Shown: piece after piece, positions 2 through 26,583 of the stretch | Layout of the letters: every line of letters begins with the position of its first letter | Position numbering within the stretch: position 1 is the first letter of the stretch | From: Limisphaerales bacterium | GTDB taxonomy: Bacteria; Verrucomicrobiota; Verrucomicrobiia; Limisphaerales; SIBE01 | DNA: 64,000 bases | Assembly (NCBI GenBank): GCA_044225505.1 | Contig: JBGAIN010000002.1 | Location: 1 to 64,000 of the forward strand | Direction: 5' to 3' | Translations under genes and position numbers: made by a program | Notes under the pieces: generated by a model | What the model was told of the DNA's origin: nothing | Seen by the model: only the letters and a program-made list of their open reading frames with translations | Databases searched by the model: none

Positions 2-3000
2 TCCCACCTGGTTTAGCGTCAGATTCAGGACCGTCGCAGGTTGCGCCAAGGTCAAAAACGGATTGAGAGGATCCCCGACCACGCCACTGCTCAAGGTGAC
101 GGTCAGATTGCTCACGACAATTCGGCCTTCCCGTAGGACGAGACTGTCAACCGCTCCTTGCCATTGCGGAAAATTGGGAAAAGTGACGGTCACTCCCCGG
201 AATTCGACCCCGTTCTGGGCCAGGACGGACGTGGTGCTGGTGATAATGACGACCGGAGAAAGGTCGATCCGCAGATTGCTTAAGGTGATGGAATCCAATT
301 GGACCGTCGTCTCGAGCGAAAAGCCAGGCGCCGCACTGATCCGGCGACCCGTGACGATCAAACTGAAATCGAAGCGGGCACTGCTTCCATTCGCGCCGAG
401 CTCGACAGAATTGCGCAGCGTCAGCACGCTGCGGCCGTCCGCAGCCGTTTCGAAGTCCCCGGTGCTGCTAAAAGTCCCGCCTGCGCCGTTGCCGCTGGTG
501 ACCGTAAACGTTCCATCAATCTCATGATCGGCGCCGACGATATTCTGCAATTCTCCGTTCGCAATCGCACCCAGGCGCACTTGCCCGCTCAAGGTTCGCC
601 CCGCCGCTTGCAACCCGGTGAGAGTCAGTTCCACTTGGCCGAGCGAATCAACGGCGAATTGCCCCTGACGCAACGAGGCCACGCGCAAACCGAAGCTCAC
701 CGTTCCGCCAGTGGCGACATTGGCTCCGCCGATTTTAAGCGTGGTGGTAAAGGTCCGATTCCAAAGCGACAGATCGACCACCGCGTCCGTCACCAGCACA
801 AAACTGTCAAAATTCTTCGGGTCCGGAAATCGCACGCGCATGCGGGTGATTTCTGCGGGAATGATTCCCGCCAGTCCCAGCTTCTTGTTGTAGCCTGCCG
901 GGAAAACGACGTCCGCTTCGGAGAGTTCGACCGAACCGTCGTGGTTTAAGGCCAGGCGAGTCAAGGTGACGGAAGGGCTACCGGCCGGATCGGCGATGAC
1001 GTTCAACCGGCCCGCGAGGTTCGTGAAAGCGAGGAGATCGTCCCCCGGGGCGGCTTTGGGATTGAACGTGAGGCGGGGATTGGCCGCGGTTACGTCGAGC
1101 ACTCCAGCCACGCTGCCCTGGAAATTGGGAGCGTTAACCGTCAGTCGACCGGTGCCGAAATCCCATGTGCCCGTGGCTCCCCCATCCAGAGTGAAGCTGG
1201 TCTGCGCGGGGGCGTCGGGAAGCACTTGAAGATTCGGGCTTGAAAATTGAACGCTGCCCGAGAGGGCCAAGGTCGGTCGAAGAATGGCATCGAGCGCCAG
1301 GCTGAACGTGCCGCTCGCCACATGGAGAACTCGAGGCGATGTCCCGGCGGAGAACGCCCCTGTGGTGGCCGCTTTGGTGAGCGAAAAGCCGTTCTTACGC
1401 ACGATTGCCTGATCCAGCGTGCGCAGTTGAGGATCAAGGTCCGGCAGCACGGCCAACGACATTTCCAAATTCCGCAACCGCGCCATCTCGTTGGAATTGG
1501 GATCGATGATCACGCGCAATGCCGGGCCCAGCGCGTCACCGCTCGCCGTCAGGGTTACAACATCCGGTAAAACCAAGGAGGCCGCGTTTGCTTCGAAGAC
1601 GAAACGGCCGACGGAACTGCTGGTGGTGTCGAGATCCAGCCGTCCAAGAATCGATTGTGCGGTGATCACGCCGTCAACTGCGACGGTCTCCAAGTTCGGG
1701 AATATGGCTGCGGAATCGGCCGTAATCGTCAAGTCACCGCTAACTTGGACGCTACTCGGAGAAATGGTGATCCGAAGATTGGCAGTCAGCACCGGATTCT
1801 TGATCTCGAACAAGTCCGGCAATCCAGGAATGAGGGGCGCCTCTTTAATGACAAAAGTGCCGTTGAGTCGAGTGCCAGCAGTGGCTGTCTGCCGCAAACT
1901 AACGCCGCCGGTCAGCGCTTTATTGCCACTCTCCACGTGGACGAGAGCAGCCCCCCCGCCCACCGCGCGAAAATCATACGAGTAAGTGCCTTTAAGGGCT
2001 TCGGGAAGGTAGGCCGTCCCCGTGCTTCCGCCGGTATATTGACTCCCTGGAATCTCCGCCAACGCGCCAGTTTGAGTCGTGAAGCCAACGCGCCGCCCTA
2101 GCGGGTCGGTGATGAACCCCTCAACGCCCGCCAAGGTCACGTTGAGCAACCGCTGCGGTGCAGCGGCCGCGAATGCCGCAAAATTAGCTGAAGTCGCGGC
2201 GTAGCCGAACTGCTGGAAAGCGGTGGTGAGGAAATCCACGTTGCCCAAGATCGAATCATGTCCGAGCTGGCCCAAACTGGCGATGACCCGACTTGTATTT
2301 TGGAAGGCGCCATCCAGGAAATGGAGCAATTGCGAGCCGCCCAGGAAGAAGGGCTCGAGCATCCCTCGCAAACCGGAAACTCCGTCGCCTCCCGCGGGAG
2401 TGACGACTGGGCGGACGGCAATTCCCGAGGCCGTCGTGGTGGCATCAAAATCGAACAAACCTCGAGTCCGAGTCCCGCCGTTATTGCCGGCCACGAAGGT
2501 GCTAAACCCAGCCCCTCCGCTGGTGAAGATCACCGCTGAAGCGCTCGTGGGTCTGACGGTTGAACTCGCCACCAGCGTCGGGGCGGGCGCTTGCGCTGGC
2601 GTTGTCGCAGTCAGGCGAAGCGCCTCGGCCGCTCGCGTCGAACGGGTTTCGGCGAGGATCGGAAAAGTCGCCGTGGTGGGAGCGGTGGGGAAATTGACGT
2701 AGATACTCGGGATCGTTTTCGTGAAAGAGATTTTGCCTCTGTAGAGCAGTTTGTTGTGGTCCAGGGCTCTCTTCCAATAGTCGTAGATGAACGCCTCCAA
2801 CTGCGGCCTGGTAGAGAACTGCGGCAGAGTCGGATTATTGAGGGAGAGGCGGAGCGACTCCAACTGATTTTCGGAGAGGTTCGACTGGCCGCCCACGGTC
2901 ATCAGGTTCGGTCCAAACAAGCCATTGATGGCTGAATTCCTTCGCTCGTCTGTCGTGCGCACCCGCCTGGTCTGCGGATCGATCGTGAGCGTGTCATACT

Positions 3001-6000
3001 CGTCCAACAGTCCCAGGTTGTGGCCGAATTCGTGAGCGAGCGTGCTGCCAAACCGCTTCCCAAGCGCACGAATCTTTTCCTCGCGCGCCGCGGCGGTGTC
3101 GCTACTCGGGACGAACTCGGGCCGGTCCGCCAGGTCACTGAGATTGTCGACCCAAAGGGTGATGCTGCTCTCGCGAAACGGATTGATGACCAGGTCCATC
3201 CGATAGGCCAGAGAGGCCGCAGAAAGGAATTCGCGCGGGGCAAAGTTTTGGCGACCGAAGAACGGTGTGTCGTAGGGAATCGTCTGAACCAGGAGCGACT
3301 CGAAAGTGCCTGAGGCAAAGTTCAGCCTCGCGTGGGCCAGCGTGCTCGTATCGGGATTGGCATCGAGTCGATTAAACAGGAACGAGACGTCGCCGCCCGC
3401 GGTGTCGATCGTCTTGATCTGCATTTCCGGAAACGCCCCGGTATTAGCCACGACGCGGAACGTGGCATTCAACTCTTGCAGCAGTGACTCGAACAACAAA
3501 GTCACATTGGCGTCAAGGACTGGAGACGCCGTTCCGCTCGGAAAGAGCAGGCGGCGAAATGCTTGCAGGCCGGCATCGGTGAAGCTGGCTTGGCTCAAGG
3601 CGATCTTAAGCAGTAAATCGGCGATCTGGGCTTTAAATGATTCACGCGAAACCGTGAGCACGTGAGCCGATGTCGCCGTCCCGAATATCTTCGTCTCTTC
3701 TCGCCCCGTGCCAGGTCCAAAGTCGTTGAGCGCGCGCCCAGTCGCTTCATTCTTAAACACCAAAAACGCACCCGATGACTCGATCCGCTTGGCGGGATCG
3801 ACCGTGGGAGCGATATAGCTGAGCTCCTGGGTTCGGTCGTCGAACTTGAATGTTTCCGGCGGTCCCACACTATCACGGACGCTGACGCTGACTCCCCGGG
3901 GTACGCTCAGGCGGATCGATCGGTCTTGATTCTCCAGCGTCGCACCGAAGCGGATGGTGTTGTCTTGGAAGCTGTCATCGCCCGCGTCCACGAGGAAGAA
4001 CAAGCGGAAGTTCTTTGTCAGCAGCGCCGGCTTGGGTCCGGTCGACGTTTCGTAAGAAGTGATCACGGCATCCAGCAATTGCACCGGAGGCTCGTTTGGC
4101 GCGATGTTCTTCATGTAGGTCGGGAACAGGACCGACTCAAATTCCATTTCCAGTTTCCCAGGCGAGCCGTTGCTCGCGGCAGGAACGATCAGTGTTTTGG
4201 ACTGATTATTCTCAAGAAACGTCCCATAAATGGCCTGTTCATTCTGATTGAAGAACCCGCTGCCATCCACCGTCTTGCTAACTCCGTTAACCTTGATTCC
4301 CGTTAACCGCAGGAAGTGATTGGCAGCGATGCGGAACCCAACGGTCCGATCCACGTTGGACGTGTTGGTGACGATCAGCGTGTTTTTGTCAATTCCTACA
4401 ACTGCGGGAACGAAACTCAGCGGCGGCAAAGGCTGAATCGGCGTGGGATCGAACTCGGTGACAAAGTTTTCCGTGACCGAATTGGGGAGTTCATCCGGCG
4501 TCGACTGATTGGTCGGCAACTGCTCTGGATCCGACTCAAAAAAGAAGACCGAGCCGTCTCCCGCGTCGCCGCTCGAGTCCGTGAACTGCAAGGCGGACGG
4601 ATCGGTTTTGTCCAATTGGACGTTGTCGAGGAGGACAGAGAACACACGAGCCCGCTGGCTGCGGCTCAGCTCCTGGCCGGAAACGCGGGTAAATGTAATC
4701 GTGACGACTTTGCCCTGGGCTGCCTCGGGAATGGCAATAACGCGTTTGGAGAAAGCAGTGTCGAGCGACGATGGCGGAACGATGTCGACCTCGTCCAGCA
4801 CGCGAGGATTGGCCTCACCTTCTATCTGCAAGGTGATTCGCAAGGCGGCATCGTCGTCCACCGCCGGGTTGGAGGAGTCGGACGGAGGAACGACAAAGGA
4901 ATCGTAGGAAAGGAATCGCGCATCGGGCGGCAGATACATCCGATTGTGCGTGATCGAGTCCTCATAGCCCAAGTTGTAGGCCATGTTGACTAACCCCTCG
5001 TCGAGGGCCTTGGCGAACCGCGCCGCCGCGCCTGTCGCGGCATCGCCCAAGCTCAGCCCGATTTCAGCCAGGACTTGGTTGGTCCAGCCCAGGAACGCGG
5101 TATAACGACCCGCCAAAGTCACTTCGGAAAAGATCCGGTTGACGTCATCGGTAAAATCGAGTTTCCCACCCGGACCAAAGATGCCGAATTGTTTGCCCAG
5201 GTCCAGAATCTCGGCGGCGAACGCATTCTCCTTCCCGGGGTTCAGGAAAAACGCGAGGTTTTCCCCTTGAAATCGACCGCCCGAGCCACCGTGGAATGAC
5301 CAGCCCGGAACCTCGCGCCAGGACGGATTTAAAAACTCGAAGAGCGGCTGGAGCAAATCGGATTGGCCGGCCTCGCGCCCCATCTGGTCCAGGAAATCGA
5401 AAAACCGATCGGCGTCTCCGCTCCCTGATTGCAGGGCCCCGGAACTACGGGTGAGCCAGTCGACCAGGAACGCGGCTTTCTCTGTCTTGGAGCTGAGCTT
5501 CAGCTCGCCCAGGAGAGTGCTCAAGATGGGAGTTTTGGTCAGCAATGTCTCGACCAGGTCACCTAAGCGCCCATCCGCTATCGCCGGGTTCAAGATCAAA
5601 AGTGGATAAGGAAACCGACCGAAGGTGGGGACGAGGCTTTGATCGAAATCGCCATTGAAGATGCTAGCGAGCTGACTGGCTGCCGCCGAAGGACGGCGGG
5701 CCGCGGCAGCCGCGTCTTCGGGCCGGTCATCGAGTCCTCCACCCAGTTTAGAGTAAGCCCATCCCGAGAGGATGCCTTCCTGGGTTTGAGTCAGATCCAC
5801 CGTGTCTCCGGTCGCACCTGCTGAATACCAGAGCTGATCGTTCGTCACCGGCACGAGCTTGGCGTTGCGCGTGACAGTTCCGTCCGGGGCCACTGTTTCC
5901 TCGAAATAAACCTGGCGCAATCCGGCCTCGTCATATCGCCAGATCGGGCTGGTGCCGCCCGGGTAATTGGCGAAAAAGTCCGTAGCGTTCAGCTGAACGG

Positions 6001-15164: not shown

Positions 15165-18110
15165 TTAGCGAGCACTCAAGATCCTTAACTGCTCAGGCCG
15201 AACCGCGACGGTCGGACGGAAGCGGTCGCTCTTCATATACTGAAGGAGACTATGACGAAATTGGCGCACCACCAGCTCGTTTGGAGAATCACTCATGAGA
15301 TCGATACTACAGACGAACAAGCGTCCCGAGCCGACTTTCGCTTCGAACGCCAAGGCCAATTTGCGCGCCGTTACCCAGTCATCGATGACTTGCACGGTCG
15401 GCTGCAGTTTTGCAGAAAACCCATCCAGAATCATAGGATTCGCTCGGTGGATGAGGTACCACCACTGCCAATTGGTATGAGAGTCCGTCGGAAACTCCGC
15501 GAAGAGCGGGTGTTTTGGGTTGCAGAGAATGCCGAGGGTGTGCGGCGGCTGGCGCCGAGTCCAGGCCGTATTCCAAAAGATACTGGAGAACCCGAGCTCG
15601 ACTTTGCCAAGTTTGGGGTCCGGTGCCACGTTCCCGGGTGGGAGCAGCCAAAGCACCTTGCCGCCGCTGGCCAATTGCGCATTGGCTTCTGGAGTAAGCT
15701 CACGAACGACGGTGATGTCACTGGCAGGGACGACCGGTAAATGCGAGGGATAGATCCATATATCCCAATCGTTTTCGGCTATGGCCGAGTCTGGTTTCCC
15801 TTCGCCTGGGCGCGCAGGGTGGTAACCGAGGAGGCCGCGTGACGATAGTTTGACCTTGAATTTATAGCGCGCGGGCGCAGGCAATCGGCTTAGGTCCGGT
15901 CGCCACTCTTGGAGAGGTCCGCTTTGCCCAAGCGGCAGATTCAAAGCAGTACTCTGCCCTTCCAAATACGTGGTCCCATCATCCGCAACGAGCTTGTAGC
16001 CTAAAGAGATGTTCCGCAACGGCTCTGGCCCGTAGTGAGCCACTTCAACCCGGAACGACGGAGTTTCCTCGGGAGTAAAAACTCGCTTGGACAGCCGGGC
16101 TAACGGCACGGTCGGACCGGAGAACCGATGAAACTCCTCGGCGGTCACGTAGCCTTTCTCCTCCCAAAACGGATCGAGTACTCCGACCAAAGCGGTCCCC
16201 TGGCCAGGGAAATCGTGGAGATCCAGCAACTGAAACCCGCCCATCCCCGGGGTGCGCAACGCCGACTCGATCTCTTCCTTGTAACAGAGCGCTTGCAGCT
16301 TGCCCGATGCGTGGAGAAAGGGCCGGGCAAGAGCAGCCATTCCGTGCGCTTCCAAAGTGTCACGAAAGATCTCGAAATTCTTGGGCTTTAAATAGCCGGT
16401 GTATTTCTTCATTTCGTCGAAGTTGGGATAAACGCACCACTCGCCAATCTCATGGCTAATGACGGGGACAGTCCGTGCTGTCACGTAATCGCGATAATCC
16501 GTCAGGGTCTCCGGCGCCGCTGCGTTAATGCGGGACTTCAATCCCCCACCCCACGATTGGATGCGCGGATCTGGCGTGACGTGGAATTCGTTCTCCGGCA
16601 ATTGCGGCCACCCGGCACCCGCACTGTAGAGTCGTCGCGGATCGGCGTTCCGGAAATGCGTTACCCACCGGCTCAAATAGTCCTTGTGATGATCGCCTCC
16701 TGGCTCGTTGCCATAGAGCAGCATGACGAACGATGGATGGTTGCCGTAAGCACGCAGGATGCGCTCTGTTTCGTCGTAGATCCAACGATCGACTGGTTTG
16801 CCGTCGCCCAGGGTGGTGGAGGCGTTGGCCCACGACGCGCACTCCACATGGTAGTAAAACCCAATCTCATCCGCCGCGGCAAACGCTGCCTCGGGCGGGC
16901 ACCAGGAATGAAACCGGAGATTGTTTAGTCCATGGGCTTTCGCAATCCGCACAATGCGACGCCAGGATTCTATCTCGGTCGGCGGATGCCCTGTCTTGGG
17001 AAAGATGCAGCACTCCAGCGTCCCACGAATAAACGTCAACTGACTGTTGATGGTGAATTGAGTGCCGCGCGCGCGGAAATCGCGAAAACCGAATCGCAGC
17101 GCGCGCGCGTGTTTGCCGCCGTGTGGCGATTCAAGGGTTACTGCAAGCAGGTAGAGCTGAGGACGGAACTCATCCCAGAGTCGCGGGTCGCGGAGCGTAA
17201 GATCGCACGCAAAGGAAGTGAGGATGTTGGTTGTGATCGTGACTGGGCATAGGCTTTCGCCTTGGCTCGAAGACCGAGTCGCACTCTGGCCGTGATCTTG
17301 AGCGGGATCGGACGTTGTCGGGGTCGCCACCAAGCTTAAAGTCGCTTCACTCGCTCGCCCTGTAAGATTCCGAATCTGTCCACGGACGGTTACCTGGCCG
17401 CTCGCGGCGTTCGGGTAAATCTGCAGATCCTCGATGGCGACGAGAGGTCGCGATTCCAGTTCGACCCGCCCAACGATTCCGTTCCAATTTCCTTGGGTAT
17501 GGTCTGAGACACTGTGGGAATCGCGTCCCACATCCAGGACCAGGCGATTATCCACACGAACGGTCAGAGAATGACGGCCCGGAGTAACCAAGCCGAGATG
17601 ATACTCATGCGCCGTCGACAAGCTTAGGTTGGTCCCGACACTTTGCCCATCCAGCCAAACGCGCGTTTCCCAGTGCGGACGCTCTAGAATCAGCCGGACC
17701 GACTCGTTCGACCAACTCTTGGGAACTTCAATCTCGCGTTGATACCAGGCAGGGCCAGCGTAGTAAGTCTGCGGTTGCAGCCAGAATGGGACTTTAATGT
17801 GGCCAGCCTTCCGATAGAGAGCGAACTCAGGCGCGGTGAAAAAGGAACGGTCAACGACTGTGCCGATCCAGGGCGTGTTCGTAGTGATAGACTCTCCCAC
17901 TCCTTGACCCGGAAGCGAGCCAGGCAACTTGATATGGCCGCTCAGACGGTTTTGAAACCAAGCCTCCTGAAGACCCGCGTCCTGCGGATCCAGAGCGAAG
18001 CGCCAAGTTCCGGAAAGTGAGATCGTCGATCCGCTCGTTGGGAGAGCGACAATGGCGAGGAGGATAAGCCGAGCCAACAACACAGATCCTCTAGCCGATG
18101 TGGAAAACAT
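15165..18110 (-). CDS. Glycoside hydrolase family 2 (beta-galactosidase/beta-glucuronidase-like), secreted
   Basis: Signal-like N-terminus from ATG 18110, ISLSGTWRF sugar-binding domain, RFGFRDF, LRFHSWCP, GNEP (acid/base) and SHEIG (nucleophile region). Confidence 0.85.
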   Translation of the reverse strand: MFSTSARGSVLLARLILLAIVALPTSGSTISLSGTWRFALDPQDAGLQEAWFQNRLSGHIKLPGSLPGQGVGESITTNTPWIGTVVDRSFFTAPEFALYRKAGHIKVPFWLQPQTYYAGPAWYQREIEVPKSWSNESVRLILERPHWETRVWLDGQSVGTNLSLSTAHEYHLGLVTPGRHSLTVRVDNRLVLDVGRDSHSVSDHTQGNWNGIVGRVELESRPLVAIEDLQIYPNAASGQVTVRGQIRNLTGRASEATLSLVATPTTSDPAQDHGQSATRSSSQGESLCPVTITTNILTSFACDLTLRDPRLWDEFRPQLYLLAVTLESPHGGKHARALRFGFRDFRARGTQFTINSQLTFIRGTLECCIFPKTGHPPTEIESWRRIVRIAKAHGLNNLRFHSWCPPEAAFAAADEIGFYYHVECASWANASTTLGDGKPVDRWIYDETERILRAYGNHPSFVMLLYGNEPGGDHHKDYLSRWVTHFRNADPRRLYSAGAGWPQLPENEFHVTPDPRIQSWGGGLKSRINAAAPETLTDYRDYVTARTVPVISHEIGEWCVYPNFDEMKKYTGYLKPKNFEIFRDTLEAHGMAALARPFLHASGKLQALCYKEEIESALRTPGMGGFQLLDLHDFPGQGTALVGVLDPFWEEKGYVTAEEFHRFSGPTVPLARLSKRVFTPEETPSFRVEVAHYGPEPLRNISLGYKLVADDGTTYLEGQSTALNLPLGQSGPLQEWRPDLSRLPAPARYKFKVKLSSRGLLGYHPARPGEGKPDSAIAENDWDIWIYPSHLPVVPASDITVVRELTPEANAQLASGGKVLWLLPPGNVAPDPKLGKVELGFSSIFWNTAWTRRQPPHTLGILCNPKHPLFAEFPTDSHTNWQWWYLIHRANPMILDGFSAKLQPTVQVIDDWVTARKLALAFEAKVGSGRLFVCSIDLMSDSPNELVVRQFRHSLLQYMKSDRFRPTVAVRPEQLRILSAR

Positions 18111-18420
18111 GATCTGATAGTAATGGGATATCACCAAAAGAAAATGGAATAGTTCAATCAACGTGCAGACTGCAGATTGGATAGGAGGGCGGATCGGCCG
18201 TTCGAGGAATAAATGCTCAGGTCTTCGTGAGCCCAACGTCGCGGCTTTGCCACACGAGTGCCGCAGCACCCGGACGAACTCCCGCAAGAAACTTGAAAGA
18301 TTCGCTGGTAAACGACCGTAACCCCTATAGGAGCTAGTCGTGAGGGCTTCTCTGGCGTCAGCGAAACATCACCCCTGAACCGAGAAGCAGACTGGCCGTA
18401 GCTGCTGAGTGAACCGTCAA

Positions 18421-18426
18421 AAGGAG
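18421..18426 (+). promoter_or_regulatory. Ribosome-binding site for the S8 peptidase gene
   Basis: AAGGAG 6 nt upstream of ATG 18433. Confidence 0.7.
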
Positions 18427-18432
18427 TCTAAC

Positions 18433-20205
18433 ATGAGCGCAAAAAAAGCCGCGAATGTCATCGTCAAGAAGAAGGTCACACCAACGCTTCCCAAGATTGT
18501 CTATGCGAATGCGTCCCCGAAGTCTGTGGGAGGTGTCTCGCTGTTCGAGGGGCAAGGACAAATCAACGCCCAGACCGTGGCGAATTTCACATCGGAACGC
18601 GACGTCATCGCCCGCGCAGTCAGCCGCTTGCGCGAGGCGGGATTCGAGATTTTGCAGGTCTCTCCATTAACGATCAATATTGCCGCTCCGGCGTCCACTT
18701 ACGAACGGGCTTTTAATACTAAGATTGTGGCCGAGGAACGTCCGGCGATTAAAGAAGAAGCCAAATCGGATACCGCGACATTTCTCGATTGCCCCGATAC
18801 CGATCTTCCTGGGTTGATCTCTACCGCTGGGACGTCGCTGAGCGACGTCATCGAAGGGGTGGCGATCGAAGAGCCTCGCTATTTCATGGCACCATCGATG
18901 TTCCCACCGCTGAAGAGTTATTGGCACTTCGATGTACCTGCGGGCATCTCATTGGGTTGCAATGCGGATCGAGCGCATCGAGGCGGAATCACCGGCAAGG
19001 GCATCAAGGTTGCCATGGTGGACAGCGGATGGTTCAAACACCCGTTCTTTGTCAACCGAGGTTACCGCGCGGCACCTGTCGTGCTCGGACCTGCGGCAGC
19101 CAATCCGCTCGCTGACGAAAGCGGTCACGGCACCGGAGAATCCGCCAATATCTTCTCCGTCGCCCCCGATGTCGAATTGCTGCCGGTCAAAATCAACTTC
19201 GTCAACTCGGCGGGTGCGTTCAATGCCGCGGTTGGCCTGGGGCCTCATATCATTACCTGTAGTTGGGGAAGCGATACCGGTACCAGCACCGTCTTGAGTG
19301 CCGCAGATCAGGTTCTCTCCGCAGCGATCGCCGCAGCTGTCGCCGCGGGCATCACCGTCATTTTCTCCGCAGGAAACGGCCATGTCGGATTTCCTGGGCA
19401 ACACCCTGACGTGATCTCCGCAGGCGGAGTTTACATGGACAAAGACGAATCGCTGCGCGCTTCCAACTATGCGAGCGGATTTATGAGTGTCATCTTTCCG
19501 AATCGGCGCGTTCCAGATGTCTCGGGGCTGGTGGGTCTGAAGCCGAGGGCCATGTCGATCATGCTCCCATTGCAGCCTTCGGACGATATCGACACAGGTA
19601 ATGCCAGCGGGACGCATCCGAATGGCGACGAAACCGCCAATAACGACGGTTGGGCCGCGTTCAGCGGCACATCGGCTGCGGCTCCACAACTCGCCGGAGC
19701 AGCCGCTCTTGTCAAGCAGGCGTGTCCAAAGCTCACGCCCGCGCAGATCAAATCGATCCTGATCAAAAGCGCTCGCGATGTGACGGCCGGCACATGCAAT
19801 GGAACGGCACTGAATCCCGGGGGCAATGCCGCGGGAGTTGGGCCCGACCTCGCTACCGGAGCTGGGCTCGTCGATGCACATAAAGCGGTGCTGATGGCCA
19901 AGGTGCAATGTCTTGGCCCGATCACGCCGATTACGATCCAACCTGTCCAACCCGTGCAGCCAATTACGCCCATCCAACCGATTCAGCCGGTGCAACCGAT
20001 CGTGCCGATTCAACCGGTGCAGCCCATCCAACCAATCCGACCGATCTCGCCTGTCATTTTGCCGCCTCCAGGCGGAGGTGTAGAGATGGAGACCGCGAAG
20101 GCGATGGAAACCACCAGCGTTCCCCAGTCTACCGGCACGCTCTCGCAGGAAGACGTCTCCGCACTGCAAGAGTTAATCGGGAAATCGGAATTTGAGATCG
20201 AATAA
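18433..20205 (+). CDS. S8 (subtilisin-family) serine peptidase with N-terminal propeptide and C-terminal Pro-[Ile/Val]-X repeat tail
   Basis: Triad motifs VAMVDSG (D 19021), GHGT (H 19126) and FSGTSAAAP (S 19672), plus oxyanion FSAGN. No hydrophobic signal peptide. Confidence 0.92.
   Translation: MSAKKAANVIVKKKVTPTLPKIVYANASPKSVGGVSLFEGQGQINAQTVANFTSERDVIARAVSRLREAGFEILQVSPLTINIAAPASTYERAFNTKIVAEERPAIKEEAKSDTATFLDCPDTDLPGLISTAGTSLSDVIEGVAIEEPRYFMAPSMFPPLKSYWHFDVPAGISLGCNADRAHRGGITGKGIKVAMVDSGWFKHPFFVNRGYRAAPVVLGPAAANPLADESGHGTGESANIFSVAPDVELLPVKINFVNSAGAFNAAVGLGPHIITCSWGSDTGTSTVLSAADQVLSAAIAAAVAAGITVIFSAGNGHVGFPGQHPDVISAGGVYMDKDESLRASNYASGFMSVIFPNRRVPDVSGLVGLKPRAMSIMLPLQPSDDIDTGNASGTHPNGDETANNDGWAAFSGTSAAAPQLAGAAALVKQACPKLTPAQIKSILIKSARDVTAGTCNGTALNPGGNAAGVGPDLATGAGLVDAHKAVLMAKVQCLGPITPITIQPVQPVQPITPIQPIQPVQPIVPIQPVQPIQPIRPISPVILPPPGGGVEMETAKAMETTSVPQSTGTLSQEDVSALQELIGKSEFEIE
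19918..20058 (+). repeat. Coding tripeptide repeat, 15 x P-[I/V]-X (X mostly Q/T)
   Basis: PIT PIT IQ PVQ PVQ PIT PIQ PIQ PVQ PIV PIQ PVQ PIQ PIR PIS PVI. Synonymous codons vary between units. Confidence 0.95.
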
Positions 20206-20279: not shown

Positions 20280-20293
20280 CCCCAGTCGACGCC

Positions 20294-22228
20294 ATGAAAC
20301 GAGTCCTCCTCCTCAGCATGCCATTCGGAGCGCTGGAACGGCCAGCACTGGGCCTTAGCCTCCTCAAGCCGAGCATTGAAGACCTCGGCGCGCGATGTGA
20401 CGTGCGATATCTCTCATTCGCCTTCGCTGACCTAATCGGCGCCGAAGAGTATCTTTGGATCGGCTCGACCTTGCCGTACATCGCATTTGCAGGGGACTGG
20501 ACCTTTGCGGAAGCTCTCTACGGACCTCGGCCGGAAGAAGACGAGCGGTATGTCGACGAGGTGCTCCGGACCTTATGGCGCTTAAATCAGCCCGGCATCG
20601 ACCGCATTTTACGGGCACGGGCGCTGGTTCCTCAGTTCTTGGAATATTGCCTTGCGACCATTCGATGGCAGGACTACGCCATTGTTGGGTTCAGTTCGAC
20701 ATTCGAACAAAACCTGGCGTCACTCGCGCTCGCTCGTGAAATCAAAAGGGCTCACCCGCGGATCCAGATCGTCTTCGGCGGTGCGAATTGGGAAGGTGAA
20801 ATGGGACTGGAACTCCATCGCCAATTCGAGTTCGTCGATTTCGTCTGCTCGGGCGAGGCGGATCAGAGTTTTCCGAAACTGGTCGACGGCCTGCTGAATT
20901 CCCCAGAGGGACAAATGGCTCCAAAGCTGCCGCCGGGCGTTATCTATCGCGAATCTGGCGTGACCCAGTCTACAGGGCAAAGCTTGCCGATTCGAAACCT
21001 GGATGCGCTCCCGATTCCAGACTTCAGTGAGTACTTTCAAGCGTGGACGGAAAGCAGCGCGGCTTTGATCATGCCGCCGACGGTGCTCGTCGAGACCTCG
21101 CGTGGCTGCTGGTGGGGTGACAAATCTCATTGCACATTTTGCGGGTTAAACGGCGCGTCCATGACCTATCGCAGCAAGACCACTCCCCGTGCTTTGCGAG
21201 AGTTTCGTTGGCTCGCGGACCGGTGGCAAACCGACCGCATCGAGGTCGTCGACAACATTTTGGACATGCGCTATTTCAAAGACTTTTTCCCCGCTCTGGC
21301 TGAGGAGGAGAGAAGTTGGGAAATCTTTTATGAAGTCAAAGCCAACCTGACAAAGGGACAACTCGCACAATTGCGTGCCGCCGGGGTCACGCGTATTCAA
21401 CCGGGGATTGAGAGCCTCAGTGATCATATTCTCAAGTTGATGCGCAAGGGGACGACGGCGTTGCGGAATGTGCAGCTCTTAAAATGGTGCAAAGAGTATG
21501 GAATCGGCGTCGACTGGAATGTTCTCTATGGTTTTCCGGGCGAAACTGAGGAGGACTATTCGACCATGTTGGAACTGCTGAAAGCCATCGATTTTCTCCA
21601 ACCGCCCGTGGCCTGCGGTCCGATCCGTCTGGACCGATTTTCCCCATACTTCTCCTCGCCAGGCACATTTCAACTTTCGAACCTGCGCCCCATGGCGCCT
21701 TACCGCTATCTCTACCCATTCGAGCCAGCCAGCTTGATGAAGATCGCGTATCACTTTGATTTCGATTACCCTTCCGGTGTGAACCCCCGCCAATACGCCG
21801 CGAATGTCATTGAATGCGTGGAAAACTGGCGGAACCATCCCGAACCCGGATTGCTTTCCTCTGTGCCGCGATCCGACGGTGGGTTGCTGCTGCGCGATAC
21901 CCGTAATCGATCAATCCAAGAAGTGGTCCTCTCCGGGGCCGAACAGGCCGCTTACCTCTATTGCGATGAGACTCGCTCGTTGGAAAGTGTCCGCCAACAA
22001 CTTCAGCACGATTTCCCTGACCGGTCCACGGACGGTTTGGAAGCGTTCCTGAATTCGCTCGTAGCCAATCGCTTCATGGTGACAGATGGCCGCAATTACC
22101 TCAGTCTGGCCATACGCACTCGCCCTGTGGATCCAGGTTGGAACCCGCTCTTGGAGAGCAATCGCCTGCTTGGAGTCGGGGATTGGACCTTGGCTCCGGC
22201 AGCCGCCGCCCAGGGCTGCAGCGCGTAG
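20294..22228 (+). CDS. B12-dependent (class B) radical SAM C-methyltransferase, RiPP-maturation type (TIGR03975-like)
   Basis: MKRVLLLSMPFGALERPALGLSLLK start, B12-binding region (VGFSSTFEQN, GGANWEGEMG, SGEAD), ETSRGCWWGDKSHCTFCGLNG (Cx7Cx2C, 21107-21142), IQPGIESLS, WNVLYGFPGE, RLDRFSPYF, and a winged-helix/RRE-like C-terminus. Confidence 0.9.
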   Translation: MKRVLLLSMPFGALERPALGLSLLKPSIEDLGARCDVRYLSFAFADLIGAEEYLWIGSTLPYIAFAGDWTFAEALYGPRPEEDERYVDEVLRTLWRLNQPGIDRILRARALVPQFLEYCLATIRWQDYAIVGFSSTFEQNLASLALAREIKRAHPRIQIVFGGANWEGEMGLELHRQFEFVDFVCSGEADQSFPKLVDGLLNSPEGQMAPKLPPGVIYRESGVTQSTGQSLPIRNLDALPIPDFSEYFQAWTESSAALIMPPTVLVETSRGCWWGDKSHCTFCGLNGASMTYRSKTTPRALREFRWLADRWQTDRIEVVDNILDMRYFKDFFPALAEEERSWEIFYEVKANLTKGQLAQLRAAGVTRIQPGIESLSDHILKLMRKGTTALRNVQLLKWCKEYGIGVDWNVLYGFPGETEEDYSTMLELLKAIDFLQPPVACGPIRLDRFSPYFSSPGTFQLSNLRPMAPYRYLYPFEPASLMKIAYHFDFDYPSGVNPRQYAANVIECVENWRNHPEPGLLSSVPRSDGGLLLRDTRNRSIQEVVLSGAEQAAYLYCDETRSLESVRQQLQHDFPDRSTDGLEAFLNSLVANRFMVTDGRNYLSLAIRTRPVDPGWNPLLESNRLLGVGDWTLAPAAAAQGCSA

Positions 22229-22247
22229 AGGCCTGCAAATCGATACC

Positions 22248-22646
22248 ATGAATTCTGAACAAATCATTTCCAGCCAAATACTCCTCCGCTCAAAGACCGG
22301 CGCCGCCCCTGATTCACAAACGCGCATCACCGCTGCGAATCTCGAAGAGTGGACGCCGTCAGCAGAGGCCCAGGAGACAATCCGCGCTCGACTCCGAGCA
22401 TACGGCTTTGACGTTGGCCCAATCGTCGGCAACGGTTTGGCCATCACGGGATCCGCGCGGCTATTTGAGACAGTTTTTAAAGTGACATTGGAGCAAACTC
22501 CGACTCACGGTATTCAATTCAAAGAAGGTGCCCGCTCTGTTTACGAGCTGCCCACCAACAATATCCCCGGTGAACTTCGGAAGTTTGTCGCGGCTGTTAC
22601 GTTTACCCCGCCGCCAAACTTCGGACCCGGCAAGTTCTCCGGCTGA
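22248..22646 (+). CDS. Stand-alone peptidase propeptide/inhibitor-like protein (paralog of the S8 N-terminal domain)
   Basis: 132 aa. Aligns by eye with the S8 propeptide: RLRAYGFDV/RLREAGFEI, LAITGSARLFETVF/INIAAPASTYERAF, ITAANLEEWT/INAQTVANFT. Confidence 0.75.
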   Translation: MNSEQIISSQILLRSKTGAAPDSQTRITAANLEEWTPSAEAQETIRARLRAYGFDVGPIVGNGLAITGSARLFETVFKVTLEQTPTHGIQFKEGARSVYELPTNNIPGELRKFVAAVTFTPPPNFGPGKFSG

Positions 22647-22673: not shown

Positions 22674-23336
22674 ATGGTCACGGTCCAAGCCAGTCGTCCA
22701 CCGCTCGAGGCCGTCCCGATCACGCTGCGCGACTCACTACTCATGAGAAAGGGCGGGTATGAACTGCTTCGAAACCTCCCTGGTGCCGAGACACGATCCA
22801 GGCTCCTTGATGAAGCCTCGCGCCAACTCCCCGCAGCCAAAGCAAGCGAGGTCACCGCTCCGGATCACGAGGAATTTCGCGGTGGTCGTCCCGCGCGCCG
22901 CTTTTTGAGCGCAGGGGGTGGATTGGTTCAGACAGCGTTCTATCACGACCCGACGTTTATTGGTTTCCTGGAGAAGCTGTGCAACGGACCGGTCCGGCCG
23001 ACGGGCAATGCCGGAACGTATACCTACTACGCGCGACCGGATGACCACCTCGATCTTCACCGAGACATTCTCACTTGTGACCTCGCTGTGGTGACCTGCC
23101 TCCTGGACAAGCACAATCCGGCCAGCCGCGGAGGGCTGAGCGTTCTTTATCCAACCCGACAAGCGGAACGGCTCTCGGCCATCAGGACGAATCCTGGCTT
23201 CGGAGCGATCGAGATTCGGATGGGCGCAGGGCAAACGCTCGTGATGCTTGGAGGCCTCGTGCCACACGCGATCACACCGATTGAAGCGGGAGAACTTCGC
23301 ATCGTTTCGTTACTTTGTTACCGCGTCTTAAGCTGA
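22674..23336 (+). CDS. 2OG-Fe(II) oxygenase (prolyl-hydroxylase-like fold)
   Basis: YTYY...HLDLHRD (HxD 23058-23066), GG motif, distal His in LVPHAIT (23265) and Arg in ELRIVS (23298). Confidence 0.75.
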   Translation: MVTVQASRPPLEAVPITLRDSLLMRKGGYELLRNLPGAETRSRLLDEASRQLPAAKASEVTAPDHEEFRGGRPARRFLSAGGGLVQTAFYHDPTFIGFLEKLCNGPVRPTGNAGTYTYYARPDDHLDLHRDILTCDLAVVTCLLDKHNPASRGGLSVLYPTRQAERLSAIRTNPGFGAIEIRMGAGQTLVMLGGLVPHAITPIEAGELRIVSLLCYRVLS

Positions 23337-23846: not shown

Positions 23847-26360
23847 TCACTGGGACTTCTCAAGACGATAAAACCGGGACTTCTTTGCTATTTCGATGAC
23901 GGCGTGAAATTGATTGTTGAGTAAGTTTACCACATTCGTCGAAGCGATCCACAAAGGCGAAGAGAGCGTATCAGCCTCCTTTAAACTAAACCCTTTGAAT
24001 ATGCCGGGCCAGGTGAGTTCGATCTTCCCCGCCACGCGTAGGAGGTTGAAAGAAGGACCTGCATCCGCAAGTGGATTTCGATACACCGCCACGAAGCCGT
24101 TGCCCAGGGCAGAGACCATGTCCGGCAGACCATCGTGATCCACATCGGCGGCTAGCATTTGCTCGCCACGCTTGCCACCCTTAACCGCGGATAGAGCGAG
24201 CTCAAAAGTCCCGTCCCCTTTTCCCCGAAAGCCAAGCATGCGGCTCGAGCCTTCCGAGACAGCGAGGTCAGGTTTGCCGTCCAGGTCAACGTCCGCCACG
24301 ACGACCCCGCTTATGAGATTCTCGGTCAAGCCGAGTGCCTCGGGCACAGCGAATGTTCCGTCTCCGTTCCCAAGGAAAATCTCAACGTCCCAACCGAATT
24401 GTTGAAGTGCAATCGCGAAGTCCAGCTTGCCGTCGCCGTTGAAGTCCGCCCTCGCAATGGAATTTGGAGCGACATTGGTACGCAAAGTCTGCGGCGGTCG
24501 AAACGTTCCATCTCCGTTGCCCAAGGCGACCTTCACTCCGCCGTCTAACGCACCGAATTTGCCTTGATAAATGACTACGATGTCTAGTTTGCCGTCACCG
24601 TTCATATCGCCTGACACAATTCCATTGGGCGTAAGGCCGATAGGCACCGACGGCTGTGCGCTCAAACCACCCTTGCCATCGCCCAGCAAAACAGCCACCT
24701 CGCCCGTAGCGGGGTTTGCCACCAGGAGATCGGGCGCTTTGTCGGCATTCACGAACGCCGGCGTGCAAAAGAAAGTGAAGAGGGCTTGATCCCCTGGCAG
24801 ATTGATTTGGGTTGAGGACGTAAAAGTGCCATCGCCGTTACCGAGCGCGACGACGACGTGCGGCTTTTGCGCGACACCGTCCCCGTCCAGTGTGAAAACG
24901 AGGTCCTGCTTGTTGTCACCGTTCCAGTCCCCCGTAGCCACGCGCGACCCGGCGTGCCCCGGTATCGCCACTGGCGGGCCGAACCTGCCACCGCCGAGTC
25001 CTTTCAAGAGCACTGCTCCTCCATCGATATAACCGGAGCTGTTCGCGACGACGAGGTCAGGGACGCCGTCGCCAGTAAAGTCAGCGACCGCTGTGTCGGC
25101 GGCGCCGCCGGCCGCGTAGAGCTCCGGCGCCTGGAAAGTGCCATCGCCATTGCCAATCAACCGGGCGCCACCACCTTCGCCATTTGAAACCTCGACATCT
25201 AAGAACCGGTCGTGGTTGAGATCCGTTATCTCTATCTGGTCGGCCGGGCCATCGATTGGATAATGATGGGGCGGACGTAGCGCGCCATCCCCATTGCCTA
25301 AAAAAACGCTTACGACCTGACTTTGGGAACTGGCCACGACAATATCCGGTTTCGAGTCGCCGTTTAGATCGCCGACTCTTGCGACGTCCAGCTTCATGTC
25401 GGCACCGATTGGGAGCTTGACCGCTGGCGCGAAAGTGCCATCCCCTCGACCGAACAGGATCGAACCATTTGTAACGATATCATCATGGTCATCGACGTCC
25501 GGGTTGAGATCGACAACGTCCAGGGAATCCGCGGTTTGCGTCTGAATCACCGCGGGCGGTTGGAAAGTGCCATCGCCATTCCCAAGACGAAGCAGGAGTT
25601 GGTGCCCAGAAGTATAGGGTGTGTCCGCGATGACTAGGTCAAGTTTTCCGTCCTCATTGAAATCGCCGCTCCCAAGATCACGAGGCACTTTGCCCGCCGC
25701 GATCGAGATAGGCGCCTGGAAGGTGCCGTCGCCGTTCCCAAGCAAAAGTGAAACATCACCGCCCACGTAATCATTTCCGGTTAGCTTGCCGAGATTCACG
25801 GTGAGCAGGTCCACTTTCCCGTCCCCGTTCATGTCAGCCGTCCGAATCATCACAGGATTGATCCCGGCCGCAAACGTGACCGGCGCTAAGAAATTAATGC
25901 CGACCGCTCGTACGACTGTCACAGCGTTCTCTCCGTCCAACACGAGAACGAGATCCTTCTGACCGTCGCCATCAAGATCCCGAAACAGTACGTGGTTCAC
26001 GGCATGATCGAAGGCAACAGTTGACGAAAGGATGGACTCTTGCAAAGCATCGTGCTCTGACGACACTCCGAGGCCGCGCAACTCGATTGACCTTTTCTGC
26101 GGAACAGCTTCGTTGGCCTTTTGACAAATGATCGAGAGGTCCTCGTCCGTTGTAATGATAAAGGTTTTTGGTTTCGGACTCTCTCTTGTGAGCGTCCAAG
26201 TGCTCACCACTCTGCCGTTGACGAAGCCTCCCGATCCAAAATCAACTCCGATCTTCCATCCATCACACTCGGGACCGTGAGTCTCGTCACTATCTTGGCG
26301 GTCGCAGCCGACGAATGTCCAGGCGATGACAAGAGAGCAGACGAACCATCGCAGTCGCAT
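23847..26360 (-). CDS. FG-GAP/VCBS repeat protein, probable lipoprotein, with C-terminal '...FYRL' domain
   Basis: More than 10 DxNGDGKxD / LGNGDGTF repeats. N-terminus MRLRWFVCSLVIAWTFVGC is lipobox-like. C-terminus IELTWP...FSLKEADTL...W...RFYRLEK. Start uncertain (26360 or 26423). Confidence 0.85.
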   Translation of the reverse strand: MRLRWFVCSLVIAWTFVGCDRQDSDETHGPECDGWKIGVDFGSGGFVNGRVVSTWTLTRESPKPKTFIITTDEDLSIICQKANEAVPQKRSIELRGLGVSSEHDALQESILSSTVAFDHAVNHVLFRDLDGDGQKDLVLVLDGENAVTVVRAVGINFLAPVTFAAGINPVMIRTADMNGDGKVDLLTVNLGKLTGNDYVGGDVSLLLGNGDGTFQAPISIAAGKVPRDLGSGDFNEDGKLDLVIADTPYTSGHQLLLRLGNGDGTFQPPAVIQTQTADSLDVVDLNPDVDDHDDIVTNGSILFGRGDGTFAPAVKLPIGADMKLDVARVGDLNGDSKPDIVVASSQSQVVSVFLGNGDGALRPPHHYPIDGPADQIEITDLNHDRFLDVEVSNGEGGGARLIGNGDGTFQAPELYAAGGAADTAVADFTGDGVPDLVVANSSGYIDGGAVLLKGLGGGRFGPPVAIPGHAGSRVATGDWNGDNKQDLVFTLDGDGVAQKPHVVVALGNGDGTFTSSTQINLPGDQALFTFFCTPAFVNADKAPDLLVANPATGEVAVLLGDGKGGLSAQPSVPIGLTPNGIVSGDMNGDGKLDIVVIYQGKFGALDGGVKVALGNGDGTFRPPQTLRTNVAPNSIARADFNGDGKLDFAIALQQFGWDVEIFLGNGDGTFAVPEALGLTENLISGVVVADVDLDGKPDLAVSEGSSRMLGFRGKGDGTFELALSAVKGGKRGEQMLAADVDHDGLPDMVSALGNGFVAVYRNPLADAGPSFNLLRVAGKIELTWPGIFKGFSLKEADTLSSPLWIASTNVVNLLNNQFHAVIEIAKKSRFYRLEKSQ

Positions 26361-26583
26361 GCACCGCGTCTTGGTCCATTCCTGAATTCTTAAGTCGCAG
26401 CAAGATGGAAAGGTGCTTCTCATGGCGCGAAAGGATGGTCCGTTAGGGGATTTGTTCAAATGCGAAATCGATCGCTCACAACAATACAATGAATCGAGTG
26501 CGCGGTGCTTACCAGACGAGATAGCTGAGAGAGCCATCTTTTTGTGTCCTAACATCTCGAACTGACCCGTCAAAAGAGCAGCG

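Follow-up and report, generated by a model that had tools for sequence, protein, structure and literature searches.

In the maturation of the proteusin polytheonamide, the B12-dependent radical S-adenosylmethionine (rSAM) C-methyltransferases PoyB and PoyC operate alongside the Fe/2-oxoglutarate (2OG) hydroxylase PoyI, and in the borosins (OphMA-type) the modified segment is attached C-terminally to a full-size enzyme, which is the modifying N-methyltransferase itself. For PoyC, which has an unusual Cx7Cx2C motif, the review PMC11285071 describes C-beta methylation of Ile and Val. Peptide fusions in borosin clusters are mentioned in bioRxiv 10.1101/2024.01.09.574750, and B12-dependent rSAM methyltransferases (the glutamine C-methyltransferase QCMT, Mmp10) that modify a large protein, methyl-coenzyme M reductase, in PMC13469106. 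Here we describe a locus in a window of 64,000 nucleotides from a Limisphaerales bacterium (Verrucomicrobiota; assembly GCA_044225505.1, contig JBGAIN010000002.1, positions 1 to 64,000), where an S8 serine protease carries a Pro-[Ile/Val]-X repeat in its C-terminal tail and is followed on the same strand by genes for an rSAM with the same motif as PoyC and for a 2OG/Fe(II) oxygenase. Judged by analogy, the system would work most like polytheonamide maturation, with which it shares an rSAM of the TIGR03975 family with the PoyC-type Cx7Cx2C motif, Ile and Val as putative targets and a co-encoded 2OG oxygenase. The tract is very probably maintained for the two adjacent enzymes and is probably their substrate; we lean, with some reserve, towards a role as a decorated tether that is retained in the protein.

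Translation of positions 19918-20079 gave the 15 Pro-[Ile/Val]-X units that the earlier note on this DNA had placed after the S8 catalytic domain, and the tract is a real, non-random feature beyond chance. It occupies positions 19918-20058 (+) in the frame of the protease gene (18409-20205, +) and comprises 15 full units and one unit without Pro: the ..KVQCLG end of the catalytic domain is immediately followed by two units, a two-residue 'IQ' unit, 13 further units and then by L, PPP and GGG. The three-residue period, which had been called strict, is thus present but broken once, at the IQ unit. The tract is not the C-terminus of the protein. After the LPPPGGG cap (20059-20079), of which the L/N-P-P/G-P part recurs in close relatives and the GGG does not, 41 residues remain (20080-20202), a polar/acidic linker and then a conserved amphipathic helix (residues 580-592 in the model, 20146-20184). 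Pro is encoded by CCG, CCT, CCC and CCA, Ile by ATC and ATT, and Gln by CAA and CAG, as the note had read them, and Tandem Repeats Finder detected in the tract DNA only periods of 18 and 27 with 69-71% matches; the repeat is therefore kept at the protein level and does not stem from fresh DNA slippage. A six-frame scan of the 9.04 Mb genome, restricted to open reading frames (ORFs) of at least 60 amino acids, returned 18 chains of seven or more period-3 prolines, among which this tract was the sole one of the P-[IV]-X type; the other 17 were Gly/Pro- or poly-Pro-rich. The longest chain of the genome, with 27 prolines (C260:134891-135136, -), resembles collagen, is rich in Gly, Pro and Cys and has no relation to the P-[IV]-X type.

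The genes follow each other on one strand in the order S8, rSAM, orfA, orfB, with gaps of 88 nt (S8-rSAM), 10 nt (rSAM-orfA) and 27 nt (orfA-orfB), which excludes a hidden small precursor gene between them. [quoted passage not shown] Pfam gave a Radical_SAM match and a B12-binding score of 27.1 bits, under the cut-off of 32.1; TIGR04014 matched weakly. In a profile comparison with the PDB the best solved relatives were the B12-rSAM enzymes TokK, OxsB and CysS. We regard the gene product as a probable PoyC-like, B12-type radical SAM C-methyltransferase. The oxygenase gene orfB (22674-23336, +) has an H129-x-D131, H198 and R209 set that was invariant in 29 sequences, and its AlphaFold model (predicted local distance difference test, pLDDT, 94.1) places the HxD...H motif and the 2OG-binding Arg on a double-stranded beta-helix. 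Foldseek returned at least 500 matches at E ≤0.001, and among the matches listed 33 of 33 were Fe/2OG oxygenases. The amino-acid hydroxylase-halogenases BesD, HalB and HalD, with template modeling (TM) scores of 0.67-0.71, were closer in fold than the Pseudomonas putida prolyl 4-hydroxylase (P4H) and the prolyl hydroxylase domain (PHD) enzyme PHD2, with 0.57-0.61; in the sequence profile comparison the P4H structure 4iw3 reached an E value of only 1.3.

The tails of homologous S8 proteases were compared over loci with and without these enzymes. A species scan, with one genome each, gave at least 411 relatives, of which the best 80 loci were retained; together with the window, and minus the truncated loci L036 and L045, 79 loci were scored. 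Everything after the Cys501 column was taken as tail, prolines with another proline three residues away were counted, and enzymes were looked for within the fetched flanks of 7 kb. An enzyme together with the repeat was found at 49 loci, an enzyme without the repeat at none, the repeat without an enzyme at one and neither at 29, a table that was identical for thresholds of 10 to 12 period-3 prolines. The 49 tails beside rSAM and/or orfB hold 12 to 45 period-3 prolines each, and 29 of the 30 enzyme-less loci have 0 to 9. The exception, L053, has 23 period-3 prolines and neither an intact rSAM nor an intact orfB; a 60-residue ORF at L053:9242-9424 joins the N- and C-terminal parts of orfB and is the remnant of an internal deletion. 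The deletion looks recent; L076 is a very close relative of L053. The outcome in which the earlier note would have seen a generic linker, the same tail being common on S8 proteases from loci without modifying enzymes, was thus not observed: it occurred once in 30, at the locus with the orfB remnant. The note had also tied the repeat to an adjacent rSAM. Here the alignment of tails bore out a link with the enzymes (49/49 beside them versus 1/30 without) but not with the rSAM alone, because the 49 loci divide into 35 with both enzymes, five with rSAM only and nine that retain the repeat beside orfB only.

On a tree built from only the catalytic part of the protease, 12 changes were counted for the enzyme trait and 11 for the repeat. 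The independent pairs, taken from supported branches, were concordant in seven of eight cases, opposed in none and without difference in one (sign test, p = 0.016). In the sister pairs L046/L039, L018/L028, L050-L054/L043 and L062/L063 the second partner, which lacks the enzymes, shows a tail that is shortened or scrambled. These losses bear on the reading that the tract is a generic proline-rich spacer which merely co-travels with an rSAM and an oxygenase that modify something else, for example orfA, the catalytic domain or an unlinked peptide. Rigid spacers rich in proline are widespread among bacterial proteins, AlphaFold showed no structure in the tract, and short Pro-rich linkers occur in enzyme-less relatives (L042, L052 and L059), all of which such a spacer would account for. 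It would not by itself account for a long regular tail that is lost or has decayed in L039, L028, L043 and L063 when compared with their enzyme-bearing sisters. Nor does orfA fit as the alternative target, since it is present with and without the enzymes and does not track them. With the recurrence of repeat and enzymes on an unrelated protein that lacks orfA, and with the near absence of Leu after Pro where an rSAM is present, both described below, we regard a plain spacer as very unlikely.

The association was also approached from the side of the rSAM. A metagenome scan with an rSAM profile gave 588 relatives, of which 79 loci were kept. In a tree of 118 rSAMs one clade with a support of 98 contained 60 rows, and a repeat-bearing ORF lay directly upstream in 58 of the 59 rows that have upstream DNA. 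An S8-type repeat tail was found in 56 of these rows and a repeat on another protein in two (L096, L097); L154, on a long branch, has none, and one row is without upstream DNA. Among the remaining 58 rows, 45 have no upstream repeat, eight could not be judged, and five (L115, L116, L121, L122 and L134) have one and form a second supported clade. In all seven loci with a repeat on another protein the carrier is an unrelated, BNR/Asp-box-like propeller protein of about 530 residues, the BNR identity resting on a weak Pfam BNR match. Its C-terminus consists of P-[IV]-X units, usually with a Lys-rich tip and with neither acidic linker nor helix. An orfB homologue follows the rSAM in four of the seven loci, and the cassettes have no orfA and no protease. 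At L115:2827-8192 the order is BNR-repeat protein, rSAM, orfB and a gene of the GDP-fucose protein O-fucosyltransferase family (PF10250, 1.2e-23).

The propeller family is modular: P-[IV]-X tails occur in 36 of the top 120 homologues, and in the remainder choice-of-anchor D/ASH, CARDB or FG-GAP modules are present, or no module at all. In P0221, P0235 and P0242 a Leu-Thr-X tail with a period of three stands in place of the proline repeat. A scan of 401 genomes of the phylum to which the genome of L008 (G001) belongs found the propeller protein in two, neither of the tailed kind by length. Upstream of a more distant TIGR03975 relative (L126, 42% identity, 1528-3312) lies an ORF with at least three near-identical units of about 31 residues, which has the look of a different kind of multi-core precursor. 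Because repeat and related enzymes recur on the unrelated BNR protein, sequence comparison suggests that repeat, rSAM and oxygenase form a portable set that was joined to two unrelated proteins, which is hard to reconcile with a plain spacer.

The composition of the units varies with the enzymes present. At loci with rSAM and orfB the residue after Pro is Ile in 66% and Val in 30% of 624 units, and over all rSAM-bearing loci Leu was found in this position in only one of 677 units. The 36 BNR tails showed the same preference (Ile 55%, Val 37%; 484 units). At the nine orfB-only loci, in contrast, Leu accounts for 39%, Ile for 28%, Val for 20% and Phe for 7% of 209 units. The third position varies; in the main class Gln makes up 34%, Arg 23% and Thr 12%. 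Where orfB is present a median of 0.85-0.90 of the prolines keep the period-3 spacing. Spacing is looser in some rSAM-only tails (L016, L051), and in L097, with rSAM and no orfB, Pro-Ile/Val is retained at a period of about 5, as judged by eye. These differences hint, weakly, at the beta-branched residue that follows each Pro as the target of the rSAM and, equally weakly, at the prolines with their regular spacing as the residues which the oxygenase reads or modifies. They also bear on a docking scaffold, in which overlapping PxxP sites would recruit enzymes or partners to the protease and the tail would stay unmodified. The regular spacing would then reflect repeated identical binding sites, and the free variation of unit number, from 12 to 45 period-3 prolines at the enzyme-bearing loci, would be expected; the strict Ile/Val rule in the presence of the rSAM points instead to a chemically relevant side chain, and Pfam and NCBIfam scans of the cassette proteins found no PxxP-reading domain. 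We consider such a scaffold hardly credible.

The surroundings of the tract were then considered in the wider S8 family. Among 8000 scored candidates 2970 S8 homologues were found at E ≤0.001, the best 120 with 60-78% identity. In 113 of these 120 the last 200 residues hold at least 12 period-3 prolines, and 114 have the C-terminal helix motif; the tail past the catalytic domain varies from 19 to 152 residues (median 107). The motif flanking the repeat on the N-terminal side was present in 101 and that on the C-terminal side in 72 of the 120, the latter in only 10 of the 40 rSAM loci of the broad set. The GGG, proposed earlier as a boundary or cleavage mark, is not supported in this role, as only 6 of 119 homologues have it. 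Relatives without the enzymes either lack a tail or have a short Pro-rich linker of irregular pattern together with the helix. Since the helix also occurs in several relatives that have neither repeat nor enzymes, the repeat looks like an expansion of a pre-existing linker. The helix was considered as a recognition element for the rSAM and rejected, since relatives without the enzymes have it and the BNR tails do not. The AlphaFold model of the whole S8 protein has a mean pLDDT of 63.8, with the tract below 50 and devoid of secondary structure; with a tail pLDDT below 50 it is uninformative on docking of the helix. A polyproline-II-like rod, as the note had suggested, is plausible for the tract.

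The same features bear on retention or release. In a true RiPP the S8 or BNR body would be a giant leader and the repeat a core, possibly in multiple copies, that is methylated, hydroxylated and excised, in the S8 version by the fused protease, to give a free peptide. The rSAM belongs with a high score to a family named RiPP maturase by NCBI, the tract varies greatly in length and lies between flanks that are fairly conserved in the close relatives (101/120 on the N-terminal and 72/120 on the C-terminal side), a protease is fused to it, and the co-occurrence and rSAM-tree data fit such a peptide as well as they fit a retained tether. The remaining observations do not go with it. Over 81 loci neither an exporter nor an immunity gene nor a second protease recurs, the BNR cassette has no protease at all, and in the broad set only 10 of 40 rSAM loci have the motif on the C-terminal side. 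The helix is older than the repeat and would be lost on excision. The tail of the propeller family sits where alternative appendage domains sit, and X-Pro bonds at every third residue are poor sites for subtilisins. A true RiPP is thus a possibility that we hold to be somewhat unlikely. A new natural-product class, with a complete enzyme as leader and a multi-copy Pro-Ile/Val-X core that is C-methylated, hydroxylated and excised by the fused S8 protease as one or more free modified peptides of the polyproline-II type, appears doubtful. The putative core peptide of the earlier note therefore survives in part: the segment is very probably maintained for the rSAM and the hydroxylase (49/49 versus 1/30), but release is less likely, because no exporter or extra protease recurs in the 81 loci and the downstream helix predates the repeat.

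From the observed repeat pattern, gene order, protein families and co-occurrence we infer the following role, with the modified atoms and retention in the protein as its conditional parts. The tract, as the variable-length middle of a C-terminal tail of about 100 residues on a cytoplasmic S8 protease, would be modified by the two enzymes whose genes lie immediately downstream of it, on the strand of the protease gene. The rSAM would methylate unactivated carbons of the Ile or Val following each Pro, by analogy with PoyC the beta-carbon, and the oxygenase would hydroxylate the regularly spaced prolines or an adjacent side chain. The likely product would be a stiff, bulky, protease-resistant extended rod, which would most likely remain part of the protein and connect the protease domain with the older C-terminal helix as a decorated tether.

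Several points weigh against a substrate that is retained as a decorated tether. Because the genes travel as a cassette, the association is partly due to shared descent, and the independent contrasts number only eight. Enzymes encoded beyond the 7 kb flanks would be missed. Neither enzyme is obligatory, as the rSAM occurs without orfB in five loci (including one too short for a verdict) and orfB without rSAM in nine. The orfB-only loci form a single clade, so that the contrast between Leu and Ile/Val is effectively a single evolutionary event, and three of the nine have no Leu. The short Pro-rich linkers already present in enzyme-less relatives indicate that a Pro-rich linker as such needs no enzyme. 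The BNR loci were found by seeding with the rSAM, so that their enzyme association is preselected. The nearest solved folds of orfB, BesD and the Hal enzymes, act on free amino acids, others on prolines of proteins. Finally, no recognition element of the rSAM was identified; a family of the RiPP recognition element (RRE)/PqqD type was not found by Pfam in its C-terminal 192 residues.

Against the described systems the locus differs in several respects. Compared with polytheonamide maturation, it lacks a nitrile-hydratase-like or Nif11 leader, an epimerase rSAM and an exporter, and the putative substrate is a period-3 Pro repeat on a 500-residue enzyme. A proteusin was considered and rejected, because neither its leader family nor its epimerase was found: the Pfam and NCBIfam matches of the S8 protein include no nitrile hydratase-like leader peptide (NHLP) or Nif11 family, and only one rSAM family, that of the cassette, recurs among the neighbours in the 81 loci. 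With the borosins the locus shares the C-terminal position of the putatively modified segment on a full-size enzyme, but the fused protein, either a protease or a BNR propeller, is not the modifier, and the putative modifying enzymes have genes of their own, which places it outside the borosins. Methyl-coenzyme M reductase sets a precedent, in that enzymes of this class methylate its side chains although it is a large protein and not a small peptide; there the sites are single and lie in a folded active site, in contrast to the tens of repeated sites in an extended tail here. Prolyl hydroxylation, as in collagen, plant extensins and by bacterial P4H/PHD enzymes, resembles the locus in that a 2OG/Fe oxygenase is encoded with regularly spaced prolines, and one BNR cassette adds the O-fucosyltransferase-family gene. 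Here, however, the top folds are BesD and Hal, there is no Gly-X-Y or Ser-Pro4 pattern, the proteins look cytoplasmic, and hydroxyproline would be a putative product only. TonB-type Pro-rich spacers likewise link a domain to a distal functional element by an extended segment of variable length, but they are not tied to modifying enzymes, and the regular form seen here vanishes when the enzymes are lost. No published description of the cassette was found in a literature search that covered journals outside subscription.

The protease itself is predicted to have 598 residues when read from GTG 18409; a database copy with 100% identity (P0004) has 590 residues, which implies a start at ATG 18433. 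Pfam Peptidase_S8 matched residues 196-459 (9.3e-25; 87.9 bits, cut-off 21.8), placing the protein in family S8, and D205, H240, N323 and S422 were invariant in 24 S8 homologues, with D205/H240/S422 as the Asp-His-Ser triad. No signal-like N-terminus was found, the hydropathy maximum in the first 25 windows being 0.43. About residues 30-155 (18500-18880, +) resemble a pro-domain, with a weak Pfam Pro-kuma_activ match (E 0.017), a BLASTP match to orfA (E 1e-5) and beta-alpha-beta elements in the AlphaFold model. The orfA product (22239-22646, +) may accordingly be described as a free-standing paralogue of this pro-domain: it has a weak Pro-kuma_activ match itself, the same BLASTP match to S8 and a conserved C-terminal ..PPDFGP motif, occurs in most loci with enzymes present or not, and clusters with S8 in the neighbour comparison.

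Each of the four cassette genes is single-copy in its own genome, with only distant rSAM matches (23-25% identity) elsewhere. The order S8-rSAM-orfA-orfB is kept in rSAM-bearing loci from 9 phyla, and over the 81 loci only cassette families recur as neighbours, the best further real cluster being found at six loci. In a high-GC actinobacterial locus (L040:8700-11678) rSAM and orfB lie in a single open frame of 992 residues with orfA between them in another frame, which may reflect a fusion, the loss of a stop codon or chance. A promoter and terminator scan did no better than shuffled sequences. Metatranscriptome contigs from three studies (≥99% identity) cover 19829-20162, including the repeat, as well as 20290-20495 and 20980-21238 in the 5' part of the rSAM gene, although contigs cannot prove transcription; in the same three studies none covered orfA or orfB. 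At position 20028, inside the repeat, contigs from two runs of one study have T for C, a synonymous change from ATC to ATT (Ile). PADLOC returned a generic subtilase match only, and rSAM, orfA and orfB had no match. The genes flanking the cassette, both on the minus strand, encode a 908-residue FG-GAP/VCBS repeat protein (23847-26573) and a 1040-residue galactosidase-like enzyme of glycoside hydrolase family GH2 (15165-18287; 1076 bits on an exo-beta-1,4-galactosidase model with a cut-off of 1500); neither recurs at other loci.

The NCBI annotation of the relatives reads 'S8 family serine peptidase' only. This also holds for 25 plasmid records, which contained tail-less relatives only; viral contigs yielded one distant generic S8 and nothing closer. 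Tail-less S8 relatives with 58% identity over residues 24-494 (L168; plasmid NZ_CP133558.1, 247951-253784) are found on megaplasmids of the Bacillus cereus group; at L168 three S8 genes lie close together.

Only a few peptide natural products are known to involve PoyC-type cobalamin radical SAM methyltransferases. If the tract is their substrate, such enzymes would act tens of times on a repeat that is fused to a full-size protein, which would represent a new and hitherto undescribed way of decorating bacterial proteins. The cassette is spread over at least 9 phyla, with Kribbella caucasensis, Roseovarius sp. D22-M7, Deinococcus sp. SM5_A1 and Solirubrobacter deserti as cultured carriers, and it offers a clean test of whether the enzymes recognize a short local Pro-Ile/Val motif or a leader peptide. 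Should the segment be released, it would define a new RiPP class; as a modified repeat it would provide a simple, repetitive and genetically defined substrate for studies of iterative C-methylation and hydroxylation.

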